From Dudresnaya verticillata (Eukaryota), in NCBI GenBank assembly GCA_977862235.1, contig OZ374562.1, positions 2,728,001 to 2,792,000 on the forward strand: a stretch of DNA of 64,000 nt, in the 5' to 3' direction. Every line of letters begins with the position of its first letter. Within the stretch, counting starts at the first letter, position 1. The notes under the pieces are model-generated. The model worked only from the letters and a program-made list of their open reading frames with translations. It was not told the origin of the DNA and did not search any database. Shown one piece after another: positions 179-58,849 of this stretch. The translations under genes and the position numbers were made by a program.

Positions 179-549
179 TGTTACAAACAGTAGCAAAACT
201 GCACAGTGGCAAAATTACAAAGCGCCATAATAGCAGCTGACCTCAGCATTTTTTAATGAATTTTCAATCTACAAACGTGTTAGTCTTTATTGTAGTCCTT
301 TACTTAGTCTATAGACTAATAGCTAGTTTTAGTAAGTTCCATCAAGCTTTCTCTAACCACTAGAATTCTATAAAGGAGGTCTGCTCTGAACTCTCTCAGA
401 GAAAGGGGGGCAGGCCGCAAACGTCTGAAGCAAAAACCTCTGAGTCGGCGAGTTGCAAGCAGTGTATCAAAAGAACCGCGTGCTTTCATCAACCACCCAA
501 AAAACCCAACAGTAAGTTTATTCATTACAGTGCAATCTGAGCCGCGACA
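179..549 (+). repeat. 5' LTR of element A
   Basis: TGTTACAAAC...GCCGCGACA (TG..CA), followed by AAT-TGGTACC; first ~300 bp repeated at 6797-7098. Confidence 0.9.
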
Positions 550-551
550 AA

Positions 552-1196
552 TTGGTACCATCGCCTACTCGGTCGTTAAAATGTTTTTTCTTGTGCGCAG
601 TGAGCGCCAGTCCGCCCAGCAGTGAGCCAAATAAGGCTGAGCAGCCTCTGAAAACAGCAGCACAGAATACGTCAAATACCGAGAAAACAATTGAAAAAAC
701 AGAAAGTGAAAAACCAGGAAAAGAGAAGCTAACAAACGTGGAAAATAAGGACAAACTTTTGGCAAAATTACCGAGTGCTTTAACGGGACCTACATTCAAT
801 ATTACCCCCAAGCCTAATTACAGTAACAAAAAGTGTTTCCAGTGCGGTCACACTAAATTTGCCAACCAATCCTGGGACGACCATAACACATCCAAATTAC
901 ACCTGGAAGAAATATTCAAGAGAGAAGGATTTAATACGGCTGTAAGCCATTTAGATCGCCAATACGACCGTTTTGTTAACATTAACTGCGACCTTTGTGG
1001 AACGCGTTAGAGTAGCAAAATATTGTTCAAAAATCACCAGTACGGTGGGGAACATATTAGGCGAGGAAATCAGCTTCGTGACCTAGTTAAGTCAGCTGCT
1101 GAGAGTGGCTATATTGAGAAGTGGCACATCATAGCTAAGCCACGAAAAGTCTACGTTCGGGAGATTTCTAAGGTGCTCAGAAACTGCAAAAAATAA
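552..1196 (+). pseudogene. Accessory ORF upstream of gag with two C-x2-C-x12-H-x5-H (U1/matrin/JAZ-type) zinc fingers; one in-frame TAG at 1008-1010; no in-frame ATG
   Basis: CFQCGHTKFANQSWDDHNTSKLH and CDLCGTR*SSKILFKNHQYGGEH; frame stays open after the TAG until TAA at 1194-1196. Confidence 0.7.
553..570 (+). promoter_or_regulatory. Putative primer-binding site of A (tRNA not assigned)
   Basis: TGGTACCATCGCC 3 nt after the LTR end; not the canonical tRNAiMet TGGTATCAGAGC. Confidence 0.6.
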
Positions 1197-1248: not shown

Positions 1249-2244
1249 ATGGACACCACACAACAGGTCCAAAATTTACAGAATCAAGTAGCCGCCTTAC
1301 AGCAACAGCTTGGACAGGCTAACCAGACCTTGCAAGAAGCAACACAGACATATCAAAATGTGACGCAATCAAACATCGGCAATAACCTAAGAACGGGTAA
1401 ACCTGATAAGTTCAGAGGTAAATTTGCTCGGAGTTGGGTTAAAAGCCTTGAAAATATTTTCAATAGCCAGAACAATCCTGTAACTGAAGATAAAAAGGTT
1501 AAGTATGCCGTAAGCTATATGACTGGTGCTGCAATACAATGGTGGGAGTTAATAAGTTTAAATAACATTGATATACCAACATTTGAGGTATTTAAGACTA
1601 AATTGTTGGAACACTTTGAATCTGTAAACAGAGAGTTGAATGCACGTAAGATGCAAAATGAATTAAAACAAATGGGAAGCCTCAACACAGTTAGAAAATA
1701 CAACCAAGAGTTCTCTAAGTGGTTGTTACAAATACCGAGCATGGCTCCAGCAGAACAGATATTTCACTACAGTCAGGGCCTGGAACACAGGACCAGGGTG
1801 GAAGTGGAAAGGGCTTACCCCAATACCGTACAAGAAGCTATGCAAATAGCGGATAGACTAGACAGTCTATATACTCCACGATTTGGGGGCAATGGTTTCC
1901 GCAATGGAAATGGAAATGGAAACCCATCAGATGGGCCAGTACCTATGCAGATTGGAATAATACCCCAGAGACGAGGAAATCGCCTATCACCAGCAGAATG
2001 GAAACGCTATATGGATGAAAATCTTTGTTTCATCTGTGCACAAAAAGGGTGTTATGCAAGAAAACATTACAAAACTGGGGCTAGGCAAGCCGCAAAACAG
2101 GAAGAAAAAACTAATTGCTCCGTTGAGTCACTTCAGCACGGCGACGGGGAAACAAACAATGGCCGAGGGTCAAGAAAAAGATACAAAAAATACAAAAACA
2201 TTGCAAAAACAAGAAAAAGAACAAAAAGAGGGAGTAGTAGGTAG
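1249..2244 (+). CDS. gag: Gag of element A (retrotransposon capsid domain, degenerate zinc knuckle)
   Basis: KPDKFRG, YMTGAAIQWW, GPVPMQIG, CFICAQKGCYARKH. Confidence 0.9.
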   Translation: MDTTQQVQNLQNQVAALQQQLGQANQTLQEATQTYQNVTQSNIGNNLRTGKPDKFRGKFARSWVKSLENIFNSQNNPVTEDKKVKYAVSYMTGAAIQWWELISLNNIDIPTFEVFKTKLLEHFESVNRELNARKMQNELKQMGSLNTVRKYNQEFSKWLLQIPSMAPAEQIFHYSQGLEHRTRVEVERAYPNTVQEAMQIADRLDSLYTPRFGGNGFRNGNGNGNPSDGPVPMQIGIIPQRRGNRLSPAEWKRYMDENLCFICAQKGCYARKHYKTGARQAAKQEEKTNCSVESLQHGDGETNNGRGSRKRYKKYKNIAKTRKRTKRGSSR

Positions 2245-4707
2245 TATAAAAGTATGTGCATTTTCGCCATACAAAAAGAGAAGGAAGTCCAGGCGACAAG
2301 CATTGTTAGTCTACAATGGGACAGTACGAAGTAGTGCCAGTAAATTCCATTGCAAGACGCTGGTAGACTCTGGTTGTGAAGAAATAGTAATATCAAAGAA
2401 ATACGCAGACGGGTTGGAACTGCAGAGAGAAAAGACTGATCTCAACGCAGAATTATTGGACCAGACACTTGTTCCGATGGAAAGGTGTGCGGAGGATCTG
2501 AAATTGCGGATTGGAGAGACCGTTATAATGGTCAGACCATATATAGTTGATTGGATCGCTTACGACTTAATCCTAGGCAAGACGTGGCTTTCTAAAGCTA
2601 ATCCAATAATCAACTGGAAGTTGAACCGCATGCTCCTTAAGCAAGAGGAAAGGTTAATAGCTCTGGACGCAGAGGCTTGTAATCATGGGGCATCCCTCCC
2701 GACATATGTGCTTACAAGTAAACAATTTAAGAGATTAGTCAGAAGAGAAAAAAGTGTGATATATCACGTATTGGTCAAAACGCCAAAGAACAAGAAAAAG
2801 AAGCAGGTAATAGTCCTGAAAGTTCATCAGGTAATAGCCCTGAAGAAGATGAATATAAAACAAAACTAAATAAAATATTGGCGGAGTACAAAGATGTATT
2901 CCCAGTCCAACTACCAAAGGGTTTACCCCCGGAGAGGGTAGTGGAGATGAAAATAAACTTGGAAGAGGGTGTGAGACCAAAGATGGGACCACTCTACAAG
3001 TTATTAAAAACAGAACTTGAAGAGATGAAAAAACAATTAGAGGAAGCCCTCACGCAAGGGTTCATCCGACCAAGCATCAGTCCTTGGGGCAGTCCAGTAC
3101 TGTTCACTCCTAAAAAGGATGGAGGACTGAGAATGTGTATTGACTATAGGGCACTGAACAAACAAACTATAAAAATTCAGGTTCCATTACCGAGAATTGA
3201 TGAGGTGTGGGATCAGATTGGGGGAGCGCAATACTTCTCTACGGTGGATCTAAGATCAGGATATCACCAAATTCGAGTACATGAGAATGATATTGAAAAA
3301 ACTGCATTCCGCACAAGATACGGACAGTTTGAATACCTTGTAACACCATTTGGGTTAACTGGAGCACCAGGGTGTTTCCAGACTTTAATGAACATTGTTT
3401 TCCAACCCTATTTGGACAAATTCGTACTAGTGTACTTGGACGATATACTTATCTACAGTAAGACAAAAGAAGAACACCTAGACATATCAAAGTAGTGTTG
3501 AAATTACTAAGAGAAAATAAGCTTTATGGGAAACTATCAAAGTGTGAGTTCCTAAAACAAAATCTTGAATATTTAGGACACATAATAAGTGATCGGGGAA
3601 TACAAGTTGACCAAAGAAAAATCAAAGCAGTACAGAAATGGGAAGTTCCCGAAACCGTAACACAAGTCCAGAGTTTTCTAGGACTTTTCAATTATTACAG
3701 GAGGTTCGTGAAAGATTTTGCTACTATCGCAGCTCCTTTAACGGAGCTGACGAAAAATAAAAATGCCTTTGTGTGGGGTGAAAGAGAACAAATTTCCTTT
3801 GAACAGTTAAAAGAAACTTTAACGAAAACACCTGGGTTACGTTGTGCAGATCCAGGTTTACCCTACGATATAACAGCTGACGCTTCTGGGACAGGAATAG
3901 GAGCAGTATTATCACAAAAAGATGAACTGGGAAGCCGACCAGTGGCATATGCATCAAGGAAATTGAATCCTGCAGAGCAAGGTTACAGTACCCATGACCG
4001 AGAGTTATTAGCTATAGTGTATGCATTACAGACGTGGAGATCTTATCTACATGGAGCTAAGTTCAAGATACATACAGACCACCATCCACTGAAGTACTTG
4101 GATACAGAAAAGACCCTATCACGTAAACAAGCGAGGTGGGTTGAGTTTATGCAAGAGTTTGATTGCGAAGTACACTATATCAAGGGAAAAGAAGACAAAG
4201 TCGCAGACGCTCTTTCTAGGCAGTACAAGGAAGTGTATTAGACATCCACCTCCTTCATATCAAAATTAATGACGATAACTACCGTATCCGTCTCAGAGTG
4301 GATGCTTAAACGATTAGAAAAGGAGTATCTCGAAGACGAGAAATTTAAAGAACAATACAATAAGCTATCAGAACCGTATAAGCGGAAGGACAAGAGGCTT
4401 TATTTCGAAAATAGATTATGCCTACCAGAAGGCGAGACAAGAAAAACAGTGCTACATGATAACCATGAGTCCTTAATTGGAGCACAAGTCGAACCGCCTT
4501 CGGCGGGGGCGGAGCTGCACGTCGCTAGACCCCGCGCCTTCGGCGCGGGACGGCATTGAGTGCTGGTATGATAGGCCCCGCGCCTTCGGCCCGGGGTGTA
4601 ACGGCGGTCGCGCGCGCACAAAAGTAAAGGACCAAATTAAGAAATCAGGCGCACAGCAAAGGTGTCGGATGTAAGGAGCACCATCCCGCCAATCAATGGT
4701 GAGGTTT

Positions 4708-4731
4708 GCTGCTGCTGCTGCTGCTGCTGCT
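4708..4731. repeat. (CTG)n microsatellite
   Basis: Direct inspection. Confidence 0.9.
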
Positions 4732-5304
4732 GATTTTTTTCATTGGCGGCGCGGTACTGTATTTTAGATATAATTGGGGGGCGTAGAAACTATTTGTAGC
4801 GCGAAGTGGCAGCATTGGCGCAGCGATGTAGAATTTTGTTTAATTTTGCAACCCTACCCTGCCTAATACTACCCTTTGGGCGGTCATACCCACATAAATT
4901 CTTACTATAAGGTTAACAAGGGCAACGACGCGGTGCTGCGCGCCGCTATGCGCCGTGCAGCCGCGCCGAAGGCGCGACCGAGTTTTGTATCCTCTGTGGC
5001 AGGATGGGATACTGTGGGATACCGGGGTAGCTTGGGGTCGCTTGATAACGACAGGTGTCTTACAATTTCTTTGGAATGATATTTGTTTCCAAGCCGTGAG
5101 ACAGGTGCGGTTTTAATCACATAAGTTAGGAATGGAGGCGCACGGCGGGACTTTAAGATCGTATCACTGTAGCGCGGCGGCGCGTCTGTCAATTTACTAT
5201 CAGAAAATCGGAGCGCACCAATGCGCGCGCGTTGATTTGGTACCGCGGCAAAATACAGCCAATCGGGTGGCACGGCTTGGCGGTCAGCCAATGGGGTTGC
5301 AGCT

Positions 5305-5373
5305 TTGCTGCTGCTGCTGCTGCTGCTGATGCTGCTGCTGCTGATGCTGCTGATGCTGCTGCTGCTGCTGCTG
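5305..5373. repeat. Interrupted (CTG)n microsatellite
   Basis: Direct inspection. Confidence 0.9.
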
Positions 5374-6784
5374 AATTTTTCTATTAGGCGTAAAAGGGTG
5401 ATCTAGTAATATTTTTAGGCGTGCGTAGAAATAGGTTTGGCGGCAAGGGATGGCAATGGCGGGCGGATGTTAATTTCTACAAAATGTTTACGTGTACGAA
5501 GCCCTCGAGGGGCCTCGTACACTGACTAATCATTACTATGGGGAGAACACCGAGGTTACAAACGGACGCTTCATAATATATCGAGCCATTACTTCTGGCC
5601 AAACATGAAAAAGGAAGTTTGCAACTATGTAAAGAGTTGCCAGAGGTGCCAGGAATCGAAAAGCAGAAACCAAAAGGCACCAGGAACTAGTCGACCATTC
5701 CCTCCGCCAACATGTAAGTGGGAGGAAATATCCATTGACTTCATTTTTGACCTACCTAAGACGAAACGGAACAAAAACGCCATCATGGTTGTGGTGGACA
5801 AATTATCGAAACGAGCGCACTTTCTCGCTCTAGAACCCAACTTTGACGAGTCAACGCTGCGCAGGTATTTTACGAAGAAGTATACAAACATCATGGAATA
5901 CCGAAAAAATTATATCAGATAGAGATACCCGCTTTACGGGGATTTTTTGGCAAGAGCTAATGAAATTGCTGCAAGTTAAGCTGAACCGTTCAACCGCATT
6001 TCATCCACAGACAGATGGCCAATCCGAGCGATCGTTTAGGACGCTTGTAGAAATGTTCAGATGCTTCATCTCTAGTACACAGAAAGATTGGAACAAATAC
6101 CTACCCGGAATTGAATTTGCATACAACAACTATACAAACGAGACTACCAAAACACGAGCATTTCTATTTGGAATACAGACAACATACATTAACAGTTTCC
6201 GAGATACTACATACGGAACACTCAGTTAATGACCAATCCCAAACCTTCTTGGAGGACATGAAGAAGACAAATGAGATGGCCCGACAAGCAATTAGAGATG
6301 AAAACTTGCATACACAGGACACAGAAAATGTAAACAAAAAATACAAAGTCGGAGACCACGTGATGTTATCAACTAAGAACCTACCGAAACCACTCGGTAA
6401 AATCAAGAAATTCCTTCCGAAGTTCATTGGGCCATTCACCATCGTTAACAAAGTAGCTGACGGCAGAGCCTATCGACTAGAACTGCCATCCGAATATAAG
6501 GAGCTACATCTTACATTTCATATTTCGTTACTCAAGCCTTATGTGGAAGACCAAAATCACAGAAATCTTCCACAAAAGCTTCATTTAGGAAGATCACCTA
6601 CAGGAAAACGCATTGAGAAGATAGTCGCACACCGCCTACGTGAAGGTTAAGGCGAGTTTCTAGTGCATTTTAGCAACACTGATGCCATTGAAATACATGG
6701 GCACCTAAACACGAAGTCGCACAGCTTCCAGCGCGTATCCAGGACTACTTCACCAAATTATTCGAGGACGAATAAGACGATTAT

Positions 6785-6795
6785 GAGGGGAGGAG
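6785..6795 (+). promoter_or_regulatory. Polypurine tract of A
   Basis: GAGGGGAGGAG just before the 3' LTR TGTT. Confidence 0.85.
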
Positions 6796-6796
6796 T

Positions 6797-7098
6797 TGTT
6801 AGAAACAGTAACAAAACTGCACAGCAGCAAACTTACAAAGCGCCATAATAGCAGCTGACCTCAGCATATTTTAATGAATTTTCAATCTACAAACGTGTTA
6901 GTCTTTATTGTAGTCTTTTACCTAGTCTATAGACTAATAGCTAGTTTTAGTAAGTTCCATCGAGCTTTCTCTAACTACTAGAATTCTATAAAGGAGGTCT
7001 GCTCTCAACTTTCTCAGAGAAAGGGGAGCAGGCCGCAAAAGTCTGAAGCAAAAACTTCTGAGTCGGCGAGTTCCAAGCAGTGTGTCAAAAGAACCGCG
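6797..7098 (+). repeat. 3' LTR of A (left part only)
   Basis: About 94% identical by eye to 179-480; breaks after GAACCGCG where the LTR of B starts. Confidence 0.9.
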
Positions 7099-7741
7099 TG
7101 TAGTAGTATGGCCCGTCAAGGCAGAAACCCGCCAACCGGCAAGGACAGCTGTCCTGACGGTGCACAACACACTAGCTTGGGTAGCTCGGGAAAAGGTTGG
7201 TAGAGACTTTGAAAGGCACAGAGCCTAAGGGAAAAGGGGGAAAAGGGGCGGCGCCACCCAGCTCGCACAGAGCAACCGTCGTGTGGAGGCAAGGCTCGTA
7301 AAGCACCTGAAAGGGAGGTTACGGTGAGTCCGTGAATTCCAGAAAAAGGGTAAAGACCCGACACCCACCGTAGGTTCTATTCAGGAGGCCCCTGCTACTC
7401 AGGGGCCTATTAAGTATACAGAGCCGAAAATGCTCTTACCTCCTATCAGCTATTCTAAGCTATTCTAACTGTCATTATTAATCTAATTGTACTGTTTTCA
7501 GTTATAATTACGGATTAGTGGTAGTACCGCGTCGGGACGCTTGAGCGGCCACAATAAATTACCCAATGGCAATTTGCCATCAATTTTGGTGCCAGCAGGG
7601 ACGCCAGCGAGGCGCATCGCCCTTACAGCGCACGGTGCTTGTGCGCGCCTTACAGCTTGATGCGCGTGGGCGTTTTACACCTTAATGCACACAAATGACT
7701 TACAGTGCGCCAGCACTTCTGCTGCGGCTCATTCTTCCACA
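7099..7741 (-). repeat. 3' LTR of B
   Basis: TGTAGTAGT...TTCCACA; about 97-98% identical by eye to 42264-42897. Confidence 0.92.
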
Positions 7742-7751: not shown

Positions 7752-8283
7752 GTTAAGGCTGAGAGACCCGCGAAGCCAGCAAGGCTGTTTCTATTGGCCC
7801 CGTCTTGGGCGAGCTTGAAATCCCAGTGGATTATTGGGCCAACGGTTCACTTGTAACCGCCGCCACTGGTGGCCGGTGTGGAACCGTTCGCAGTAGTGAC
7901 AAATCACTGACTTCGCCGTCCCAGTCTCGACGGCGAACATCTGGCTATTCCGACGACCGGTGTGCCTTCGCGCGGAAAGCCCCAAGCGGCTGCATACTTC
8001 AGCGACATCACAGCGGCTTCCGCTACAGTGTCGTGTGCGCACCCACTCTGCTCACCACCATCTCCAACCATCTCCGCGCCCTGCGCTTTCCCTCCAGCTC
8101 CAACCTACCGCCACGCGGTGCCGTTTTCATTTCGACGCGCCGCGGTGGCTGTGCGCGCGGTCGAGTGCCAGCCTTCGGTCGTTATCAACGGCGCCTTCGC
8201 CTGACATCCACTACCCTATGGCATTGCCGTTCAAGATCTTCGAGGAGAAGTAGTCAGTGTGACTCTGTCGGGAGACTTGTGGG

Positions 8284-10605
8284 ATGAACAACAGCCATAT
8301 GGCTTATGGAGCCGCCGGTTCTAGCAACGGCGTGCTAGGAATCGAGGTCGATGAGATGGGCGTGCCCCTCACTGTCAAGGAGAGCCGCGACTGGAGAGTG
8401 CGCACCGACCTCGCGCATCTCAAAGCGCGTGCTGGCGCTGATCGCACCGACATCCGCCGTCGCGGAGCGCGCCAAGCCCAACGTCGTACTTGGAATACTC
8501 ACGCCCGGGCCCGTCTATCCCCGCTGACGGGTCTTACCCGTCGCCTGCCCGCCCTCGCGGGTCCGTGGCAATGGGACTTAGCGCACCCGCGCTTTCGCCA
8601 TGAAGTGCGCTACACCGCCACATTGTGCGACAAGCTCAACTTCGAGCTGGAGCAGATGCAGAGCGTGCACGACGCTGGGCAGTACGATCTCGGGATGGTT
8701 GCGCACGAGCGCCCACTGATTCGCAGTGGTAGGGACAATTACCCTTACACCATGGCGCGCGTGGTCCGCTGGGACGAGACATCCAACTTCAAATTCGCGA
8801 TGGATAATCCCCAAACGGCCATGCCGTCAGACTTGGTGCGGTTCGAGCACCGTAATCTACATCGCACTGGGTGCTACGTCCCGGCACATTGCCAAGATGT
8901 TACCTCTATCCGTCCCGAGTTGTACAGGGTGAAGTACCCTCAAGTTACAGGAGACCATGCGGAGCTCGAGGTATCTTACTCCATGCCCGTGGGCACTCCA
9001 ACGATCATAGCCTATCTTGGCTTGGAGATGATGGACACCAATACAGACGATAGCGTCTTGTGGCCCATTTTCCGCCACGAGTGGATAGTCTTGGTGACTC
9101 AAGTATTCGTATACGAAGCCCGTCGGGGCTTGTTGTATTTCATCAATGCCCCACTTCGTGCGTCCATCCGCTCCATAGGCTCCGCCGCCTTTACCGCGAC
9201 TTCGGCTGATGCCGACGATTTGGACCAACCCCTGGTCTTTGTGGAACGGATCCGTTGGAGTGGAGTCTCAAAGCGCAACAGGCACTTGCCTGAGAATACC
9301 GGCCACATTACACCGGTATTCGATCGCGGCGACGGGGTCGAGTTTGACGCCGTCAAGTGGAACCCAGTCCTTCCCGACTACTTAATGGCGCCTCTACCCT
9401 CCGAGGGTGAATCGATCCAATTGGATGAAGGCGAACGTCGCACCGGGTACACCAAAGGTTGGGTGAGCGTGCGTTAGCGCGATGAAGGGCCTAAGCACCC
9501 TGATGAGGTGCCCCCCTTCGACGACACTGTCGATGGGGAGCCGCAAGGTCCGTACACTCCAGTGCTGACACACCACTACCGGGCTGATGCCGAGATCCGT
9601 GACCTATTTGGCCGTCGTGGGTTGGCCATCCGCTTGGCTGCCCACTGGGGCATCTTTTCCCTCAACCTTCGTAGTCTTGCTGACTGGGTTGAGGATGTAT
9701 TAGCCGAATATGAGGCTCACTGGATTGGAACCCCGGGCAACATTGCGCGCCTTCTGGCTCATATGGATAAGATGCCCCCGCTTGGGGGGACCGGGGCTAA
9801 GGCGGAGCCGAGGGTCCAAGTTAAGGACGAGACTGGTATCCTGTCTACGAGAGAGCCTGGCTCTAAGGTGCGTCGCGGAGTCGGATATGGTAAGCCGGGT
9901 TCTTCAGCCCAAGGCTCATCTGGAGCCATTCTGGCGCCTGACGCTCGTGAAGCCAATGCGGCTGACGCGTCTAAGATTCCGCGTGAAGAGCCGTCGGCTG
10001 GGGCCTCTACTGAGGGTATAACTGCCGGGCCGGTGGCTGCGGCAGCTATATCGTCCAAGACCGGCGGTCCGGCTCAGCCATCGGCTTCTCGAGTTGGCGT
10101 CCCTCTACGCTCAGTGCTTCCAGGCAACGTGCCTACGCCTAGCGAGGCGCGACTCGGGCCTTTACAGCCGAATCTGTCTGGCACCGGCGAGGCAGTGGAG
10201 GTGACGTCCGGGCCAGGCCCTATAGTGACGCCGTCGCCTATGCCGGCTCAGGCTGAGTTGCCTTCCGCCGGAACCAAGGAGGTTACCACGGAGCCGCTGC
10301 ATGAGGCGTCGAAGCCTACTGACGACGTGCTCATCAAGACGGAGCTGATCCTCAAAGAGGAGGAGGAGTTGGAGGTCAACGAGGGCGGAGGTGCTACACC
10401 TGAAGCAACGCCGATGGACGTTGAGCTTCCAGCCAGTGAGGCTCGTGGTGCCGCAATGGAGGGTATGCGCCGAGGCCGCGGTCCGCGTCGTGGTCAAGGT
10501 CGGCGAATTGTTCGCGAAGTTCGTCGCATCGTGACGGCACGAGCTCCCGCGGCTCCGAATCCGCCGCTTGACGGCGACGAAGTCATTGACCTGCTCTCAG
10601 ATTAA
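8284..10605 (+). pseudogene. Antisense accessory ORF of B (~773 codons, single in-frame TAG at 9475-9477); unknown N-terminal domain, Ala/Pro-rich linker, SUMO/SIM-like tail
   Basis: Track ORFs 8284-9477 and 9508-10605 share a frame; strongly homologous to C 19880-22224; the TAG aligns with a Trp of C. Confidence 0.88.
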
Positions 10606-19879: not shown

Positions 19880-22224
19880 ATGCCAGTGAATCCCAGCTTC
19901 CACTATGGGCAAGCCGGGTCGTCCGATAACGTGGCGCCGGTTGCTGTGGACGCGGGAGGGGTCCCTGTTGACATTGCGGCTAGCCGCGATTGGCGTGTAC
20001 GCACGGACCTAAACCATGTGCGACCCCGCGCGGGGGCGAACCGCGACGAAGTGCGCCACCTAGGCGGGAAGAGGGCGGAAGCCAAGGCTTGGAATACCCT
20101 ACTGAGGGCCCGTGTGAGCCACTTATCGTTTACGACTCTGCGCATTTCGACGCCGGGGCCATTCCCCTTTGATTTGACACGCGCCCGATATCGGTGGGAG
20201 GTCCCTTGGATTGAGAAGATGGCCCGTTTCATGGGCGAAGAGAAGTATGTGCTTGACGAGGTATTTGCTCCGAGGGCTATGACCTGAGGGCAGTTGGCCA
20301 TCCGCGCCCTTTCATCCGGGCAGGCAGGGACAATTTCCCGTACAACACAACCAGGATCACGCTTCCCAACAACCGCACCACCTATAAATACCATTTGGAC
20401 ACGCCGCAGACGGCTCTTCCCCACGAAGCTGCTCGCTTTGAGCGTCGCCAGAGGCACCGCACCGGGTGCCTGGTCCCGTTCCACTGCCAGGAGGCAACCG
20501 CTATTAAGCCGGAGATGTTCATAAGCAAGTACCCGCAGATCCCTCCGGATTACGGGTATTACGAAGTCTCGTACTCGATGCCCGTGGGGGTTCCGACCGT
20601 GGTGGCCTATCTCGGCTTGGAGCTGATGCAGTCCTCAAGTAACAGTTTGCTGTGGCTCAGCTACAGGCACGAACGGATCGTCCTCATCACCCAGGTCTTC
20701 ATGTACGAGGCGCGGAAGGGCCGCCTATTCTTCATCAACCAGAAGATACGCGATGATATTCGCGAGATAGGCTCGTCGGAGTTTACGGCTAATGCCGATG
20801 ACGCAGTTGACCTGGACTCGCTCCTACTCTTTGTCGAGCGTATCGTCTGGCGACGAGTGTCGAAGAAAAGCCGGTTCTTGCCCGCAGATACGGGCACTAT
20901 CACACCGGTGTTTGACCGCGGGGATTGGGTCGACTTCGACCCCGAAGCCTGGGCTCCCGACATTCCCGAAGATCTGATCAAATCCGTTCCAGTGGATGCT
21001 CACTCAATCGAGGCGGACGAAGGCATGCGTCTGCGGTCCGGTTTCACCGCGGGGTGGGTTTGTAACAACTGGCACAAGCCGAAGACTCCCGCTGAGGTGC
21101 CCGCGTATGACGCGCTTACCGATGGTCAGCCGTTAGGCCCGTACGCCCCGTCGGTGGTCCATGGGCGAAGCAAGGCCGATGCCGTAATTCGCAAAGTCTT
21201 TCGTCAGCGTGGTTTGACCGTGCGCCTCCATACCCATTGGAACATCCAGAACTTAACGGTCAATTCCCTGGCGGATTGGGTCGAGGCGACCATTGTCGAC
21301 TACGAAGCCTCTTGGCTAACAGTACCAGGCCCCATCCATCGGAGGTCGGAACATTTCCGGGGCTTGCCCCGTTTGGGCGAACAAGCCAAGGAGGAGCGAG
21401 AAGCGCCTGTCGCGCGAGAGGAGTTGGCCAATCCTGCGACCGGTGTGGCCCCGGCGGCACCTACAGCCATCGTTGCCGGCCCGGTGGGAGCCGCGTCGGC
21501 GGCTCCTGTCGGAGAGACCCGACTTAGGGGTCGTCATGGTATCGGCTCAGCGGGGCGTCGTGCCCGTCAGGAGGAGGAGATAGCGCAAGGCTTGGCAATT
21601 CAGGGCGTCACCATTCCTGGCAATAGGGGGAATGCCCCACTTGCGGCGAGGCGCGATGGTCGCGAGGATGACGCGGTAATGGCGTCTCTTCCGCCGGCTT
21701 CGGAAGCTGCCCTTGGGGCAACCCCGTCTCAACAGCCGACAACAGCGGCGGCAGCAACGGCACCGGCCAGCGAAAGGGATGAAGAGCGGATTGAGCCGGC
21801 GACTCCCGCGGCGCCGCCTACTCCAGCGTCCACTTCATCCCCTGGGTCAGTGGTGATGTCTTCCCCACCGACGGGTGAGGCGCCGCCGTCACTACCTATT
21901 GAAGGCAACGCGGCGTCCGGGCCTGGCCCGATCGAGGCTGACTCAGTGCAACTCGTCTCGAATACAGCAGCAGTGGACAGCTCCAGGGTGTTGCCGGATG
22001 AGGAGTCGCAAGTCATGCAGGAAGAAGGCGGGGGCCTGGTTAAGACCGAGCTCGTCATTAAGGAAGAGCTCGAAGAGGACCCAACTCCTATGGAAACGGA
22101 CCCCGTTCAGCCGCGAGTGCGTCGCATCATCCGCGAAGTGCGGCGTATCGTTCACCCGGTCGGTGCCGTGCGTCCAGCTAACGTGGAGAACGACGAAGTG
22201 GTTGACCTGACGGAGGATGAGTAG
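19880..22224 (+). pseudogene. Antisense accessory ORF of C (~780 codons, one frameshift near 20270)
   Basis: Starts MPVNPSFHYG; after the shift reads GYDLRAVGHPRPFIRAGRDNFPY, matching B QYDLGMVAHERPLIRSGRDNYPY; ends EVVDLTEDE*. Confidence 0.88.
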
Positions 22225-43762: not shown

Positions 43763-44812
43763 TTCGTAATGTACAAAGCAAGGGCTCTCAACTATGCAAT
43801 AGAAGCATCTCCAGCAAGATCAATGGATTGGATTGTACACATTTAGACGAAGAAACACGCTTTGATTCGGATACAATATGGGCGATTTTGCAGCACTGTG
43901 GCAGGGAAACATACTTGATGAGGGTTACAAAATCACAGCAATGGCCACGAATAGGGCAAGGGCCGATTCTTTACGATTCTTTATGGACGTGCCCTAACAG
44001 ATAGATCTGTTGCTGGGGGCGACTTAGGAACTGGAAACTGGTTGACCACGCTCGCGGATTCGGGCCGAGTCTCCGACGACTGCGGGCGTTATCGGATACA
44101 GTATGAGTGTGGCGAGGTATGGGTTGGCATGCACGGATCGTTCGTGATTGCCGCGAATTGCGTGGAGCAGGAGGTGACGTTTGACCATGGGGTGGACGGA
44201 AGTATAGCGGAGGACGCGTTTTTCGCACTATTGGCTCGCGCGAAAAACGTGCAGTTTGCTTGGATTGATGCATTAATGTTCGAGCAAAGCCCGTTCACGG
44301 TGCAGGACTTTGTTAAGCAACGAGCACGATGGCTTGTTGGTGGGTTACGAGTTGTCTCTAGCAAACAAATCCCATTGCGCCTCCCGTTTCTCATGAAGAT
44401 GCTGACAGGGTTGTGGGCTCTGATGCCGCTGACATACACGGCACTGATCGTATCGATGCTCTTCGGAAGTGGGGAGGGGCAAAACTCCGCCGGAAACTGC
44501 TACTACTTTCATGTGCTACTGCCACTCTTGGCCGCGGTATCGCTCTGGAACTACATATATGGATTCTTCGTGACGTTTTCGATCTGCAGTCTCGGACCGA
44601 TCCGGTTCACAACATTGCTCTAACTACAGCTGGTGCTGTCGAAAGTTTTCGGTGTGATGGAGGTGGCAGCGGTATCGTACGCGCTGGTGAACTTTCGCAA
44701 AATATCTGGCACGTTCCACGTGGTGGAGAAGGACTGTCCACCGAGTGGGACGTCTCCCTCGCGAAGAGACAGCACGGGAATTGCAGGAGAGAAGACGCGA
44801 CTGCTGCCATGA
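43763..44812 (+). pseudogene. egh: Egghead-like beta-1,4-mannosyltransferase (GT2) C-terminal part, pseudogenised
   Basis: YKARAL, DWIVH-LDEET (frameshift ~43842), IGQGPILY, TTLADSGRVSDD, HGSFV, GSIAED, EQSPFT..QRARW, FHVVEK; in-frame TAA at 44621. Confidence 0.8.
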
Positions 44813-47965: not shown

Positions 47966-48292
47966 CAGAAGCCCACTCTCGCCAACTTCCCAATGCACAA
48001 CTAATTCAGAAGCCTCAGTATCAGGCCCCAGCCTGTTGCGTGCATTACGAACCCCTGGCGCATCGACCTCACCATTCATGTCCAAACTCATCAAACACAC
48101 ACCAAACGCTCCCGCACCGAAACCCATCAGAAGCCGACTGTCGTCAACTTCCCAATGCACAACTAATTCAGAAGCCCCAGTAGCAGGCCCCAGCCTGTTG
48201 CGTGCATTACGAACTCCTGGCGCACCGACGTCACACAATTCATGCCCAAACTCAACAAACACACACCAAACACTCACGCACCAATCTCCCAT
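47966..48292. repeat. Imperfect 162-bp tandem duplication upstream of the glycosyltransferase gene
   Basis: CAACTTCCCAATGCACAACTAATTCAGAAGCC...AAACACACACCAAAC twice. Confidence 0.9.
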
Positions 48293-48372
48293 CTTACCTT
48301 CACTCACATGGTCAACTCGCGGTCACCTTCCGCACTGTCTCAGTGTACTGCAATAGACAAGCTCCCCATCAA

Positions 48373-49608
48373 ATGGCCACCGCAGCCTCGCTGCAAGCTC
48401 TGCGCAACAGAAATCCTACCCAGTTTGCCAAGACAGCCCTAATCCTTTTCCTCCCTTTGTTGTGTTTAGCACTCCTCCCTACACAGACGCAAGTCACAAG
48501 GGGGAGGCATCATGTCCTCCTGTTTTCCGACAGAGGTGTGTCGCATTTGACCGTTCGCGCCTTGCAAGCAAGTGGCTTTCTTGTTTCAGTCCGAACCCAT
48601 CGTCTCCGCCCGCGCGGATTGGACCCTCGCTGGGAGAAGGTCTTTCAGTTGAGAGAGGCTCTTTCAGATTCAAGTACAATCTCTACAATTACCTGGCTCG
48701 ATGATGACCTTATGCCAGATATGCATTGGCTGCGTCGCGCCATCACTTCCAAGCTCTACTACCCGGTCTTTGCAGGCTTTGAATACGGGAAACAAAAGCA
48801 CAAGATCATGTCCAATCTGCTTGTCTTCCAAAACAAGCCCGAGTCTTTGGATTTCGTCAACCGATGGGCAGATATTCATCCGCGCTACATCAACAAGACC
48901 ACCGGAATACAGGACCAAGACGCTATCAATGAGATTGCTACGTGCCATCAAGGAGGAGTAATGTGTATGACGCACAGCTTTGCCATGATGCACACGGGTG
49001 GCGCAAGCAGCAAAAGAGTGGCCGTTCTGGACCGGGGTGCTCGCGACTACCTCTGGAATTTCCATAATGTCTTGCCGAAACTCTTCCTCTGGACTGTTTT
49101 CGCGGTACTGGCATTGCGCGCAGCCGCAACGCACGACACTGGCTGTGCCTCTGTGGTAGGTCTTTTGTACAAGGGATGCACCGAGGCGGTATTGCATGTG
49201 AATACCATTTTGATTCTCATGGCTCTAGCTTGCCTCGGGCTGGAAAGCATCCTGTCCATCAACGTGATCGGGGCCGAGCCGTTTCTGTTCTGTCCAAAGG
49301 CCTCACAGGTCAAGAGGATTGGAGAGAGCTCGCTCTCACTTGGCGGGCGTTGGTCAAAAGCTCATGGTGCTCTTGTGTATGCAGATTGGCTGAACAGACA
49401 GGAGCTTTTATGCTTACGGGGGCGAATGAGGTGGTTGTGGTGGCCATGGGTGATTTGGGCAATGGAACGGAAGAAGATGCTGTGGCGGTACGCAGCATCG
49501 GCAGGGTGTGTTGCCATGGGTGCTTTTGTTGGGTGCGTTGTTAGGAGCGGGCGGTCTGCTATTGTTCCCGCGTGGGGCGAGGGAAAGGAGAGGCGACATG
49601 ATAGTTAG
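48373..49608 (+). CDS. Putative GT-A glycosyltransferase (GT34/GT77-like), N-terminal anchor plus C-terminal hydrophobic segments, 411 aa
   Basis: First in-frame ATG at 48373; TM segment; WEK, WLDDD (DxD), FQN...SLDFVNRW, QDQDAIN motifs. Confidence 0.65.
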   Translation: MATAASLQALRNRNPTQFAKTALILFLPLLCLALLPTQTQVTRGRHHVLLFSDRGVSHLTVRALQASGFLVSVRTHRLRPRGLDPRWEKVFQLREALSDSSTISTITWLDDDLMPDMHWLRRAITSKLYYPVFAGFEYGKQKHKIMSNLLVFQNKPESLDFVNRWADIHPRYINKTTGIQDQDAINEIATCHQGGVMCMTHSFAMMHTGGASSKRVAVLDRGARDYLWNFHNVLPKLFLWTVFAVLALRAAATHDTGCASVVGLLYKGCTEAVLHVNTILILMALACLGLESILSINVIGAEPFLFCPKASQVKRIGESSLSLGGRWSKAHGALVYADWLNRQELLCLRGRMRWLWWPWVIWAMERKKMLWRYAASAGCVAMGAFVGCVVRSGRSAIVPAWGEGKERRHDS

Positions 49609-51415: not shown

Positions 51416-52561
51416 TCAATGAACTTTGGCATGCTCGGCACGCTTGTTTGGGCACTTTTGATTGCGCCTGCGTGCAGGCCTGCACCGTATAGCGGCAGGA
51501 ACAACGCTTTTGAGCAAGTCCCCAAGGACCTCTGGGCGAAGGTCTTCCTTCTTGCCTTTGAGAACGTCATGGAGGTAGGCCCGCATCTCTTCATGAGCAT
51601 GAGTTACCGCGTCGAAAACACGAACGGTATAGACTTTCACACGGAGAGATCCATTATGGTGCACCCCTTGGTCCGTGACAAAAACGGCTAGTTCAGCTGC
51701 CTCAACCTCATCCCCAAACAACGACATCAGGTTCGAGTTGTGCTTGTTGTGTTTGTGCTGCAGAAAAAAGCGGGTCCACAGCGCCTTTGCCGTCTTGTCA
51801 CTCAAGGTCACATGGACTAACGTCTTCCGTATGCGGTTCACAACACCGAGCGATACGAAAGCCATTAGCTTTTTATGCGTATCTGTTTTCTTCATAACGA
51901 AGCCATCTTGAAACCCGCTGATTAGATCCGTCATCTTGACGTATTCGCTTTGGTCATATCGTTCGGATAGGTGGTCAAACAACTGCCACCCATCATTAAT
52001 CATCTGCTGCACCTCCTTGTCAACTGCTGCAGACTTTTCCCGCAGGTTATTTCGAAGTGTTCCATATCGGAGATTCAAAGACTCGATGAGTTTAAGCCGC
52101 ATCGCACGACATGACTCCGCGATGCGGTTCACAGCGTCATGAGACGCGGTGCTCTCCCGATCACGCAGATCCCGAAGGCTTACGCAAAATATGTTTCTTT
52201 CCTGGATCAGCTTGTCAAGCCCCGACACAGTAGCTCTGTTCAGGTCTTTGAAGTCCTCCAGCTCGCTCGCTTCTGCTGTTTCATTAGTTGTGAGTACAAC
52301 CAGCAGCATTGAACCCAGGGATTCTCCGAACAGTTCCTTATACTCATTTAGCGACTTGAAGGCACCATTTGTGATGCCACCGTCCACATTAACTGTCATT
52401 ATCAAAGTGCTGGCTCTCTGAAGTATGCGGATGTGATCTTCTATGGCTGACTGGTAAAACACATCCAGCCCATCTTTATCATTGAGGCCCGGAGTGTCAT
52501 ATATCTCAGTCATCCATAGTTCATTGTCTATTTCCTCCACTCGCTCGCCGCGCTCGATGCG
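51416..52561 (-). pseudogene. 3' part of AIG1/GIMAP-like GTPase gene split by the Copia element
   Basis: IYDTPGLND (G3), LFG..MLLVVLT (AIG1-like G4 region), helical C-terminus. Confidence 0.8.
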
Positions 52562-52566
52562 GATTG

Positions 52567-53599
52567 TGAAAAGGAATATGGAGAGGTTGGAGTTGAACAA
52601 GATGAGAAATGGAAGTCGCTTGACTTCGTTTACTGCAGTCGACAATCCGACATGGCTTATATCAGCTTTTCGGATGAGTTGCTGCGTGAACACAAACAAA
52701 ACAAATCATTAAAGATACGCCCAAAATCCCTATTATCAAATGGGCGGGAAAAAGTAAAGCAATTAAATCTACCAAATCATACTCTCAGCACACTCACATC
52801 CGCCACCAAAATGGGCGGGAACTTGCACACCAGTGTTGCTAACTGCTGACATCAGCAATCCCTCTTGCGACCGCATTTCCTGCCATCCATATGTACTCCA
52901 ACTTTGGGCGGGAACGTGAAAGTATCGAGTGTCCCCGCATAGCTGCTGTCGGACAACGCTGCACACCACGTGGCCGCACTTACCAGCTCAAGTCCGTCCA
53001 TGAATATCCAACTTGGATCATTGGCCACGTAATCACCCAGATTTGCCTACGTGGCAGCTGTAAACCAACGTGTCGGCCGCACGACAGCTACGTGGCAACT
53101 GTAAACCAACGTGTCGGCCGCACGACACCTACGTGCCAACTGTAAACCAACGTGTCGGCCGCACGACAACTGCATCTGCTGATATCACAAGCCAGGCTCC
53201 ACGTAGCGCAAGTCCCTGCAGTACCAACTCAGACGCCATCAGCACATTGCATGGCACGTTCATATGTACTTGTGGAGTACAGTGCGCGTCATACCAGTAC
53301 CATTCCATGCCATACCACGTGCATCCATGCGGTCCAATCAGATCGTTCCACTTGGCCGTTCCTGTTATAACCGCCAATTCCAGCACAACACTTGTAAGCC
53401 ATATAGACCATGGAGGCGGTTTGTAACAACCAATCAGAAGCCCGTTTCACGTTGCTTTTGCAAAAGGCCTAAATGCGCCGTGATTTTGGCAGCCCGGAAA
53501 AAGCGCTGTCGTCTCCGGAAGGTTTGGTGAAAGCGTGCCAGGGTACCATCTGGGGTACCTGACCCGTGACGTGAGGCGCCAGCGACCATGTCCTCAACA
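52567..53599 (-). repeat. 3' LTR of the Copia element
   Basis: TG..CA ends; copy at 58850-59882. Confidence 0.97.
53047..53169. repeat. 3 x 41-bp tandem repeat inside the Copia LTR (also at 59330-59452)
   Basis: CTACGTGGCAACTGTAAACCAACGTGTCGGCCGCACGACA unit, no spacers. Confidence 0.93.
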
Positions 53600-56500
53600 C
53601 TCCTCCTCGATGGCTCCTCCAAGTCCAACCCTTGGTAGAATCCTATTGAGCAAAGTGGGCCCGAGTGGCTTTGTCAGCAAGTCCGCGTCGTTGTGTTCTG
53701 ACGGCACATACACAACTTCCAGAACAGAGTCGGCGACAAGTTCGCGAATGAAGTGTACACGAACGTCGATGTGCTTGGCACGACCAGACGGACAGCGTTC
53801 TCCAGTAGCCCAATTGATGGCAGACTGGTTGTCTGATCTCAATGGAACCGGGCCTTCGACGTTCAAGTCGGCCTCCTTCAGCACTCGCGTGACCCAAACC
53901 GTCTCTTTCGCAGCCAGAGTCATTGCATAGTACTCCGACTCGCAAGTTGAGAGAGCAACAGTTGACTGCTTCTTGGATCCCCAAATACACACTGCATCTC
54001 CCAGTTTCACCATGTAACCAGACATAGATTTTCGGTCTGTGGTGTCACCGGCATAGTCAGCGTCCACATAAGCTTGGATACGAGTGGTTCCGGACTGGTA
54101 CGTAACTCCATGCTTGTGAGTGCCTCGAAGATATCGCAGAACCCTCTTTGCACCACGGTGACAGTACGCAGTTGGAGCCTTCTGGAACCGTGCGAGGATA
54201 AGCACAGAGGCCAAAATGTCCAGCCTTGTGCGAAGCCCCAAGTACAGAAGTGACCCGATCATCTGCTGGTACGTCTCAACCGACACGACGGCCTTGTCCT
54301 CTTCGGCGGCAAGTCCAGTGAAGAAAGACTCAACCATTGGCGTACAAGCCGGCTTAGAGTTCTGAAGTCCAAATCGACGAAGAACACTTTCCGTGTAGAC
54401 CTGTTGAGTCATCTTGAGGGACACAAATCTGCCATCAGAGTCTAGCTTCCATCCAAGCTCGACTCCGAGGAAGAGGTCAACCCCTTCAGACAGCCGTAGA
54501 TCGTAGAGGCCCTGCAGCTCCTTAACAATGGCGTCTCTCTCCGCCTTTGTGGGCGCGAGGATGAGCAAGTCATCAACGTACACCAAGATGTATGCGTATC
54601 CAGAAGACTTGGATTTGCGACGAAACACGCAAGGTGCACTTGGCAATTCCTCAAACATCATCCCAGCAAGGTCACCACACAGCTTGGTGTGCCAAGCTAG
54701 GTGAGCCTGTTTTAGCCCATACATAGCTTTCAGAAGTTTGTAACAGAGAGATTCCCTTCCAGGAATCCCACGCGGTGACATTACCCACACGTGTTCTGCC
54801 AGATCACCATTCAGGAAAGCCGTCTTCACGTCTAGCTGTGCAACAAACAGGTTCAAACACAGTACCAAGTATAGGAACATGCGCACCAGCGAGAACGACA
54901 CAACTGGGGCGTATGTTTCCATGTAGTCTTCACCATACGTCTGGAAGTTTCCACCAGCGACGACCCGCGCTTTGAAGCGCTCGACAGTCCCGTCGGACTT
55001 GCGTTTAACTTTCAGCACGGCGTGCGTTGGAAGCGGCTGTGCATCGGGACTGTCATCACGGACCCAAGTGCCTTTGGATTCCAAGGATGCGAACTCATCA
55101 TCAATGGCAGATTGCCACAACCCGCGCTCCTCCGGAGTGGCAGACATGGCCTCTCGAAGAGTGGGCTCATCTCCCGTTGTGAGGGCAACCTGTTGTTCAG
55201 CTTGTGCAGAGCTTGCCATAAACCATTTCGACGTCTGGCGACGTTGGCGACGAGGATATCGACTCTGTTGCTGGCGTTCTGGATCTGAACTCACACCAGC
55301 CGGAGGACTGTCAGAGACGTTTTCTTCCTCAGCCGTGTCATCAGATTCGAATGAGCTGGGTTCTGATGGAGGTAGTGGAGGTGAAGAAGGTGTGTCAACT
55401 TCAATCGCATCCTCTTCATCCTCAAAGTTACCCAGCGACACATCGTCATCAGAGTCCGAGTTGAAAATAGAGGCCTCTGAGTTAGAGTCGTAATCTTCAT
55501 CCGAATCTGCCTCGTCCTGCCCATATTCCAACAGGCTTGGAGCACCCGGGAATTTGGACTCGTCGAATGTGACATGCCGCGACTCAACCACACGAGGTAT
55601 ACCGTCACCGCCAGTGACCAATATCCTGTAGATCCCATGCTCTAGAGTCTCCAAGTGCACCCCCTCAAGTGCACGAGACTCGAACTTGGATCCGCGTGGG
55701 AGCCTTAGGACATATGCAGCACATCCAAACACTCTTAAATGTTTTAAATCAGGAACATCACCTGTCATGACCGAGTATGGCGTAGCCCCAACGGTTGAGT
55801 GTGGTACCCGATTGCGCACGTAGTTGACATGCTTCAGTGCAAACGGCCACAAACATCCCGGTAGATCAGCCTGGATCAGCAAAGTCAGGGCAGCTTCCAC
55901 CATGGTTCGGTTCACCCTTTCCGCGATTCCATTGAGCTCCGGAGTATAAGGTGGGGAGAAGGATTTGCCACTGTCTCCAACTCCTCCCAAATCTTTCTGC
56001 AAAGCCAAATACTCCTGAGCCCCGTCTGAGTGGAGTTTTGTTATTTCCGCTCCTCCAAGCTCGATAAACTTTGCTGAAGCTTGATCAAATGCTGCACTCA
56101 ACATACGGCGACTTCTCATACATGCGACGACCAAGAAACGGGATTTATCATCCAGAAACGTCGTGGCATACCGGAAACGATCGGGAAAGGAGATCTGGAT
56201 TGGACCAACAATGTCGGAATGCACGAGATCACCGACAGCTTTGGCCGGGCGGAAGTGCCCTGGGAATGATTGTTTGTGTGCTTTCCCAAGTCTACAAGCC
56301 CGACACACTTCATGAGTGGAGCCCAACCCCGGAACACCCTCAACATGCTCGTGCACTTTGGCCAAGTCCCGAAAATTAATGTGGGCAAGACGTCGATGCC
56401 AGAGCTCAGTAGTTTGCTGCGTGCTGGGGACAGCCAGTACTTGCTCCTCCGAAGTGTGCGGCTCGGGTTCTGGTAGCATGTACATTCCAGAACTCGCATC

Positions 56501-57913: not shown

Positions 57914-58835
57914 AGCTGTTGGGACTGATGGTGAGAAGAGATGACTTGAATAGTTTTAGAAAACTTGGGGAACTTGGGGCAGTGCTGTTAGTGCAACAGT
58001 GTCGATGCCCAGAGGGTAATAGTCGTGTTAAGCAGAGCAGTGCAGCTCACACAACGAAGACGTGACGACGAAACTGAGAAATGTGTCGAACACGTCGGTA
58101 ATATAATACAGTCACAAGCGGAGCACACTTTGCCAAGTAGCTCCCACGCTTGGAGTAATGAAACTCTCAGGTGATGATGGGATCACCTGGACTGAAGAAG
58201 AAAAGTTGAAACTTGAAGTTGAAAAGTTGATTCTTGATAGTTGAACGTCTTTTTGACGCGGGATGTTCTGGCACCAGGTTCTACCTAGTCACCCCTAGGA
58301 GTCGGACTCCTGGCCCCCGGATATGATTCTCCGGGTGAAATGCGTCTTTCAGCAGCCCTTTCGTGTCGTGCGCACACAGACACGAAGTATGCAATCCTTA
58401 CGAGACGTCCACCTTATGGGTACTAACTCAAAACGAGTGTTCACCACACGAACAGGTCCAGTCTCTTGCAGGAATGGAACTAGGCCCAACCGTGTCAAGG
58501 TTCTGGATCTTACTGGAGGTTGCTCCCCTAGGCCAACGAGGTCCTGACTTAACGAGAGTCACCACACACAACACTCAACCTCTCAGCAAGCTCACGGACC
58601 AAGACAACAGCGGACGAGAGCCTCGAGAACTCTCTCACAAAATCAGAGACACAAGCCGACACAGTGGGATAGGGACCACTTTCAACAGACAACAAGCAGA
58701 CAGGACAGGACACAAGCCGACAGGACAGGACACAAGCAGACAGGACAGGCCAGGACGGGACCGGACAGTATCAAGAATGAAAAGAAAAAGGGAGAAGGTT
58801 GCAGCGAAGCGATGAAGTCTGCGTAGGTCGACCTT

Positions 58836-58849
58836 CTGGGCCCATAACC
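58836..58849 (-). promoter_or_regulatory. PBS complementary to the anticodon region of tRNAiMet (half-tRNA priming)
   Basis: GGTTATGGGCCCAG directly after the LTR terminal CA, as in Drosophila copia. Confidence 0.88.

Follow-up and report, generated by a model that had tools for sequence, protein, structure and literature searches.

The question raised by the locus considered here is what a reading frame with two zinc fingers, interrupted by one stop codon and devoid of any ATG, is doing between the primer-binding site (PBS) and gag of a retrotransposon of Dudresnaya verticillata (assembly GCA_977862235.1, contig OZ374562.1, positions 2,728,001 to 2,792,000 of the forward strand; the whole stretch of 64,000 nucleotides that was analysed is called the window below). 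The reading put forward as a whole, to which a probability of roughly 0.4 is given, is that this frame, called ORF0, is a broken copy of a conserved gene, that the start codon of the gene would be made by splicing, and that its protein would favour the element's own unspliced RNA.

The carrier of the frame, element A, is a decayed Ty3/Gypsy LTR retrotransposon on the plus strand with ORF0 between PBS and gag, in which the LTRs, the PBS, the polypurine tract and the order gag-PR-RT-RH-IN are all present. The 5' LTR (TG...CA, 179-549, its 3' end set by the CA before the PBS) is 94.4% alike to the positions 6797-7100 over 179-482, with 17 mismatches in 304, and contains a TATA-like box CTATAAA (368-374), presumably the promoter element of the LTR, that is also found in both LTR copies of the related locus L018. 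The PBS TGGTACCATCG (553-563), which reads TGGTAGCATCG in L018 and in another related locus, L003, is taken by us to be likely of the initiator-Met type. The gag gene (1249-2244; Ty3 capsid, PF19259 at E 8e-14, also PF03732) starts with the ATG at 1249, the first downstream AUG in good context, and is followed by a pol region (2102-6692; protease, RT, RNase H, integrase, SH3 and a decayed chromodomain) with stops and frameshifts. The window pol aligns over the chromodomain region of L018, where the domain is recognisable at the integrase C-terminus (PF00385, E 1e-8), but is decayed there. An unrelated insertion of about 1 kb (4485-5535, strand unassigned), seen as a gap between the tblastn segments of the L018 pol, lies in the integrase zinc-binding region; it contains runs of (GCT)n and, towards its right end, a hairpin, and no second copy of it was found within the 64-kb window. 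The polypurine tract and the truncated 3' LTR (6785-7098) break off at 7099, where the LTR of another element sets in, and the remainder of the 3' LTR was not found behind the nested elements that start at this position.

These nested elements, at least three chromodomain Ty3/Gypsy elements of the minus strand, occupy 7099-42897, with the LTR pairs 7099/42264 and 18668/30710 being 97.8% and 97.2% identical, respectively; their PBS (TGGTCTCCCGAC) differs from that of element A, and ATG occurs at normal frequency in their long leaders. A Copia element (52567-59882) has LTRs of 1033 nt that are 100% identical and an unbroken polyprotein of 1453 codons, so that its insertion is very recent, and an AIG1-family GTPase gene of the minus strand apparently lies in two parts on either side of it (51419-52705 and 59880-60965). 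Three plus-strand open frames of 375-655 codons (8263-10605, 20257-22224 and 48184-49608) gave no Pfam match; the former two, antisense within the nested elements, may be accessory genes of the latter. A glycosyltransferase family 2 fragment (43955-44623; PF13632, E 1.5e-19) is likely a host gene.

The first-pass annotation, made from the letters of the window, had described at 552-1196 a frame upstream of gag with two exactly spaced fingers, the second of them reached through a TAG codon. Translation of this segment with X at the TAG (1008-1010) gives 214 residues and confirms both fingers in the frame 516-1196, each of the form C-x2-C-x12-H-x5-H: finger 1 at 834-902 and finger 2, broken by the TAG, at 987-1055, with 28 residues between them, before the frame closes at the TAA 1194-1196. 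Both are found by translation, six-frame scan and family alignment, and for finger 2 the fold of an intact homologue was matched as well. A looser finger pattern, in a six-frame read-through scan of the 64 kb, has four matches, two of which are the ORF0 fingers in one frame. The suggestion that the TAG is a point mutation is borne out, since all 20 rows of the alignment have a hydrophobic residue and no stop in that column, which makes it a lesion of the window copy; programmed readthrough of the codon was rejected, as the homologues are open at that place. While the frame upstream of gag is thus real, 552 does not hold as its beginning, because the frame contains no ATG and so offers no start codon at that position. 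The coding region is placed at 600-1196 (198 codons, broken in the window copy) and comprises a low-complexity N-terminal arm, the two fingers and a tail of basic C-terminal helices (1056-1193; conserved W, K, P and S), the latter recognised by the charge of the homologues and by predicted helices. A fusion to gag, for which the first-pass annotation had proposed a check, was not found: ORF0 is closed by a stop of its own, 52 nt short of the gag ATG, and lies in a different frame, and none of 625 longer candidate proteins was a gag-fused ORF0, which is weak evidence.

The relatives of ORF0 form a family of proteins of 116-414 aa, with 27 clusters matching at E<=1e-3 and 19 at E<=1e-10 (HMMER, 1.8 billion proteins). 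Identities are 25-36% across the matching clusters, except for the closest relative, which is 55% identical and open across the position of the window TAG. Common to them are a low-complexity arm that varies between members, the two fingers with a helical spacer, and a basic tail. Of 25 proteins examined, 16 keep both motifs intact, and in 11 of these the inter-finger spacer measures 28 residues; its range is 26-31. Loss of the Cys/His residues among the copies, which would have spoken against the first description, was not observed: of the 20 non-redundant rows (28 rows minus eight near-duplicate cluster mates), 18-20 retain each of the eight zinc ligands. A chance finger motif was therefore rejected, given the 27 clusters and the conserved ligands. 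The dN/dS ratio is 0.11 (bootstrap 0.04-0.21) for L003 versus L009, the one pair of ten in which it is measurable, synonymous sites being saturated in the other nine. None of the 22 clusters looked up contains a named protein, and no ORF0-family cluster was found in the Atlas, where small clusters lie outside the searchable set.

The linkage of ORF0 with gag was followed in 18 related loci fetched by gag patterns. The finger profile lies directly upstream of gag in nine of them (L001, L002, L003, L006, L009, L010, L013, L014 and L018), so that the frame is present in other copies; in two more (L005 and L016) the sequence begins, as judged by eye, within the last codons of the ORF0 tail, five have too little upstream DNA, and in L008 gag is 5'-truncated. 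In the remaining locus, L011, the PBS is followed by gag and ORF0 is absent, which means that ORF0 can be lost. The element of L011 (245-420 for the stretch considered) is 86% identical to L002 in gag and has the PBS 175 nt before gag; this locus might be a deletion derivative or a sister family, possibly relying on ORF0 in trans. Four pairs of finger and gag clusters come from equally sized contigs (6716/6668/12303/2396, 3190/5740, 2216 and 11236), and L003 is the 3190-nt contig bearing both ORF0 and gag, which confirms one of the four pairings in DNA. The own stop of ORF0 lies 52-366 nt upstream of gag in the nine spacers measured, and L001, L005, L014 and L016 make up a subfamily with a longer spacer of about 250-370 nt. 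The distances of ORF0 and Gag correlate weakly (Mantel 349/5040), and several contig copies of the ORF0 elements are decayed. It is nearly certain that ORF0 is a genuine gene, that purifying selection acts on it, and that it is distinct from gag and accompanies its gag lineage.

The nearly complete element of L018, with its C-terminal chromodomain, is a stray contig inside an Algimonas bin; L018 (1-6709) and L020 are retrotransposon contigs of eukaryotic origin that were sorted into the assembly of a bacterial genome and are host contamination of this bin. Algimonas lives on seaweeds. The only named relative of the Gag is from Chondrus crispus, and from this and the presence of L018 in the Algimonas bin it is quite probable that the host of the ORF0-bearing lineage is a red seaweed. 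Scans of metagenome and viral contigs with the finger pattern at the DNA level, as well as pol and gag scans of viral contigs, gave no match.

The first-pass annotation overlooked the lack of an ATG in ORF0, the nearly AUG-free leader around it and the conserved splice signals described below. The lack of an ATG belongs to a much wider depletion. The leaders contain one ATG in 851 nt in the window (11.8 expected), one in 879 nt in L018 (10.9 expected), none in 1032 nt in L003 (10.2 expected) and two in 797 nt in L002 (13.5 expected), where the expectations are from dinucleotide shuffles and none of 1000 shuffles per leader was as low as observed. No other of the 64 triplets is as strongly depleted as ATG (2 vs 33); the gag regions have normal ATG counts, and CAT departs from its normal count in one of the four leaders, that of L002 (5 versus 12.2). 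At the protein level, internal Met makes up 12 of 5160 residues (0.23%) in 26 ORF0 proteins versus 150 of 5210 (2.9%) in 20 Gags. Of the ORF0-gag spacers, 8/9 are ATG-free, as are the three counted in the longer-spacer subfamily. Decayed copies such as L006 and L009 have 4-6 ATGs in the leader; in two neighbouring elements, leaders of 1.1 and 1.7 kb contain 12 and 13 ATGs, respectively. The sole ATG of the window leader opens a 14-codon out-of-frame uORF (581-625, plus strand) that begins within the intron predicted below; it was rejected as the ORF0 start, being out of frame and absent from L018 and L003. The leader of 0.8-1 kb, ORF0 included, is purged of AUG in all frames, very probably for the sake of scanning to gag: with an AUG-free leader, ribosomes on the unspliced RNA would pass across ORF0 and go on to the AUG of gag, and selection for such scanning would be the simplest reading of the purge. 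Ribosomes have been shown to scan across the AUG-free ORFs I and II of RTBV, according to the accessible part of PMC5902531.

A gene without an AUG in DNA may still acquire one in RNA. A predicted splice donor A/GTAAGT (511-517, the slash marking the exon boundary), in which A511 would supply the first letter of the start codon of ORF0, has equivalents at the same place in L018 (A/GTAAGT, 1153) and L003 (A/GTACGT, 51), so that all three copies keeping the 5' end have a donor 34-62 nt before the PBS, preceded each time by A. A pyrimidine tract with the acceptor CAG/TG (584-602), in frame with ORF0, is present in the window as well as in L018 and L003, and a matching in-frame acceptor region is seen in the N-extended gene calls P0013 and P0060 of two further families. 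The predicted intron over the LTR end and the PBS would thus have 89 nt in the window (512-600, plus strand), 86 nt in L018 (1154-1239) and 91 nt in L003 (52-142). The ORF0 proteins of these three elements are 26-38% identical, yet the splice signals are shared. Per locus, the donor occurs in shuffles with a frequency of 0.005-0.063 and the acceptor with 0.0025-0.029, values that are optimistic because the patterns were defined on the same three loci that were scored. L003 carries ACTAACC, which serves as branch motif in every known intron of C. merolae, and L018 fits the general motif WCTRAYN (PMC2483917, accessible part); no good branch motif was found in the predicted intron of the window copy. 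On these signals, the AUG of ORF0 is probably made by the joining of the LTR donor A to the UG behind the PBS, with an A at position -3 in all three predicted spliced starts. As the PBS would be removed with the intron, the spliced RNA could not prime reverse transcription.

As to the protein, its assignment to the structural class of U1C/matrin/JAZ fingers, proposed in the first-pass annotation from the spacing, is supported by spacing, sequence, language-model and predicted-fold matches alike. The core of the intact ORF0 protein of L018 was modelled with a mean pLDDT of 84.9 and pTM of 0.61; in the full-length model the N-terminal arm is disordered, and the tail helices are predicted at a pLDDT of about 85-95. 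The hairpin and the kinked, extended second helix of finger 2 superpose on the top six structures with an rmsd of 1.0-2.0 over 35-46 residues, including the tRNA dimethylallyltransferase Mod5 (3eph; Z 5.2, rmsd 1.2 over 45), JAZ-dsRNA (2mkn; Z 5.1, rmsd 1.9 over 42), a chain of the pre-A spliceosome, which we take to be U1C (Z 4.7), and TUT1 with U6 and TUT4 with pre-let-7 (both Z 4.4). The ten best structural matches are all RNA-containing complexes or RNA-acting enzymes; with Z no higher than 5.2, such matches show class, not function. Foldseek gave no match at E<=1e-3 in the PDB and BFVD, the best PDB sequence match of the ORF0 profile is JAZ finger 3 (E 0.017), and in the Atlas its neighbours, at 0.91-0.94 and with a recognition value that stays under the threshold, are clusters of zf-met/zf-C2H2_jaz. 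The proposed HMMER comparison with zf-met and zf-C2H2_jaz gave no Pfam match for the window frame; among 26 family members, zf-met is matched by nine (best E 0.0038) and zf-C2H2_jaz, at E<=1, by three (best E 0.0094), P0002 reaching 10.8 bits for zf-met against a curated cut-off of 21.2, and none of the Pfam matches shown for ORF0 proteins attains such a cut-off. The finger pair has a net charge near zero, the arm is often acidic, basic residues are present after finger 2, and the net charge of the tail is +9 to +14 in 12 of 16 homologues. RNA binding by ORF0 is plausible.

If these parts are put together, the following circuit may be proposed. One LTR promoter would give one transcript. In its unspliced form, this would keep the PBS, lack an ORF0 AUG, be scanned to gag and be packaged; in the spliced form, the PBS would be lost and ORF0 would be made from the A/UG start with A at -3. 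Since the spliced mRNA would have the ORF0 AUG and no PBS, a single splice would switch between "genome plus Gag/Pol mRNA" and "ORF0 mRNA", and this spliced/unspliced architecture, taken overall, is likely, a little less so than the splice-made start itself. The near-consensus splice sites that flank the PBS imply that the element would need a means to keep part of its RNA unspliced. ORF0, as the product of the spliced form, would be a natural feedback signal and might block the splice or export the unspliced RNA, as Rev and CERV do. That ORF0 is a nuclear RNA-binding protein, with U1C/matrin-type fingers and a basic tail, acting in such a Rev-like feedback is the function preferred here by analogy, with a chance somewhat short of even. 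More speculative, and rather unlikely in its full form, is that the intron of about 90 nt over the PBS is a binary switch whose splicing is blocked by a U1C/SF3A-like finger protein, making up an independent Rev-like circuit in algal retroelements. As to an RNA target, single-sequence folds of three leaders have no conserved structure in common, as judged by eye.

The splice step, and this step alone, is rivalled by a weak start of ORF0 at an in-frame GUG behind the PBS on unspliced RNA, from which ribosomes would leak to gag. The acceptor reads as an in-frame GTG in all three copies, where gene callers start the proteins, and because of this a non-AUG start explains the purge of AUG equally well; precedents are an AUU start with about 900 AUG-free nt in RTBV (PMC5902531, accessible part) and upstream sORFs on the unspliced RNA of MDG1 (PMC11952523, likewise in part). 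However, the donor preceded by A, the spacing of 86-91 nt, the pyrimidine tract, the CAG and the branch motifs are left unexplained, and the GTG of L003 has T at -3, against the A of the three predicted spliced starts; this start is considered improbable by comparison with the splice-made AUG. Equally improbable is the function first suggested for ORF0, a sequence-independent binder of dsRNA or siRNA that suppresses the RNA silencing of the host. It would be consistent with the JAZ finger 3 and JAZ-dsRNA matches, the zf-met/zf-C2H2_jaz neighbours of the Atlas and the strongly basic tail, and P4 of RTBV, made from a spliced RNA, interferes with silencing (accessible part of PMC5902531). In JAZ-type dsRNA binding, a positive helix-kink-helix surface is used, as far as the accessible part of PMC9775027 goes; this feature, at the sequence level, is absent from the fingers of ORF0, the inter-histidine loop of which contains Asp/Glu in 14/16 proteins for finger 1 and 16/16 for finger 2, with K/R in that of finger 1 in 2/16, against two lysines between the histidines of JAZ finger 3. 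The match to zf-C2H2_jaz in three of 26 members points the same way, and the finger spacing, read at first as a pointer to dsRNA, serves for tRNA, U6, pre-miRNA and splice-site RNA in equal structural matches. Generic dsRNA binding of the JAZ kind is thus not supported by the sequences, and, because the loops are acidic, the suppression of RNAi, itself not supported so far, is ranked only as a rival.

An action of ORF0 on DNA or chromatin, as an LTR transactivator, an anti-silencing factor or a protein adaptor that does not bind RNA, would fit the near-zero charge of the finger pair and the disordered, often acidic arm and basic tail of a nuclear regulator, and there are weak matches to the fingers of ZFHX4, ZFAT and SALL4 and to Dbf4. 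Against it are the x5 spacing of the histidines and the helical spacer of 26-31 residues, unlike those of tandem DNA-binding arrays, the matches to which are of low probability and high rmsd, as well as the RNA linkage of all ten best structural matches; it is regarded as slightly less probable than the suppression of silencing. Finally, ORF0 could be a captured fragment of a host zinc-finger gene without function for the element, in line with the broken window copy, L011 without the gene and the decay of several contig copies. This reading is largely refuted by the selection data (dN/dS 0.11, ligands and spacer conserved at 25-40% identity) and is opposed by the constant position, the costly purge of AUG and the absence of any long or named host protein among the 27 matches in 1.8 billion proteins; its chance is put at next to nothing.

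A retroelement has one promoter from which to supply both protein-coding RNA and an intact genomic RNA, and outside retroviruses not many accessory regulators have been described. In searches of the open literature, no description was found of the ORF0 family or of a start-creating intron that spans the PBS, and neither the family nor this combination of features is in the accessible parts of PMC6317226 and of the red-algal preprint 10.1101/2025.02.11.637652. If ORF0 did suppress silencing, it would be a retrotransposon-encoded RNAi antagonist, of which none was found in a search at the level of titles and abstract beginnings. As ORF0 escapes both ATG-based ORF finders and Pfam cut-offs, other accessory genes of this sort may go unnoticed in transposon libraries, and the depletion of AUG ahead of gag offers a simple handle to search for them.

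Among the known systems, the U1C/matrin/JAZ fingers (ZNF346/JAZ, ZFa, Mod5, TUT1/TUT4; Pfam families zf-met, zf-C2H2_jaz and zf-U1) share with ORF0 the spacing and the hairpin with a kinked long helix, whereas ORF0 is distinguished by the acidic inter-histidine loop, the helical spacer of 26-31 residues, the conserved basic tail, the encoding by a retrotransposon and the lack of a shown Pfam match over its cut-off. The rarity of extra 5' ORFs in Gypsy elements was overstated in the first-pass annotation, since extra ORFs, in either position, are reported for 3372 plant Ty3/Gypsy elements in the accessible part of PMC6317226, in the main text of which the word "zinc" does not occur. The plant eORF-5'F (e.g., in Ogre, same source) and the two upstream sORFs of the MDG1 group are likewise separate ORFs before gag under selection; in MDG1, according to the accessible text of PMC11952523, the sORFs are carried by unspliced RNA, sORF2 being FAST-like, while the lineage of ORF0 has a chromodomain integrase. 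In the available portion of PMC10309623, a spliced mRNA encodes CERV of the C. elegans element Cer1, which contains a candidate zinc finger and is needed for the export of the unspliced genomic RNA. Both are accessory proteins of LTR retrotransposons, the spliced mRNA of ORF0 being predicted from sequence, but CERV is a protein of about 517 aa that comprises H/M/G domains and a C4-type loop, against about 200 aa, two C2H2 fingers and a DNA sequence free of a start AUG for ORF0. The env of insect ERVs of the springer subclade has an AU/G start assembled across a splice junction (PMC12992720, as far as accessible); it lies behind pol and its intron removes gag-pol, in contrast to ORF0, which lies before gag and would have an A/UG start and an intron of about 90 nt over the PBS. 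In RTBV and badnaviruses, the ORFs I/II, known for leaky scanning, resemble ORF0 by about 900 AUG-free coding nt before the main polyprotein and by an ORF I without AUG; these are pararetroviruses with ribosome shunting and an AUU start, and no splice-made start of ORF I is described in the accessible part of PMC5902531. Upstream extra ORFs, splice-made starts, AUG-free ORFs and Rev-like factors each have a precedent, and the lineage of ORF0 brings together, in a compact design, a candidate start-creating intron that spans the PBS and an AUG-free gene.
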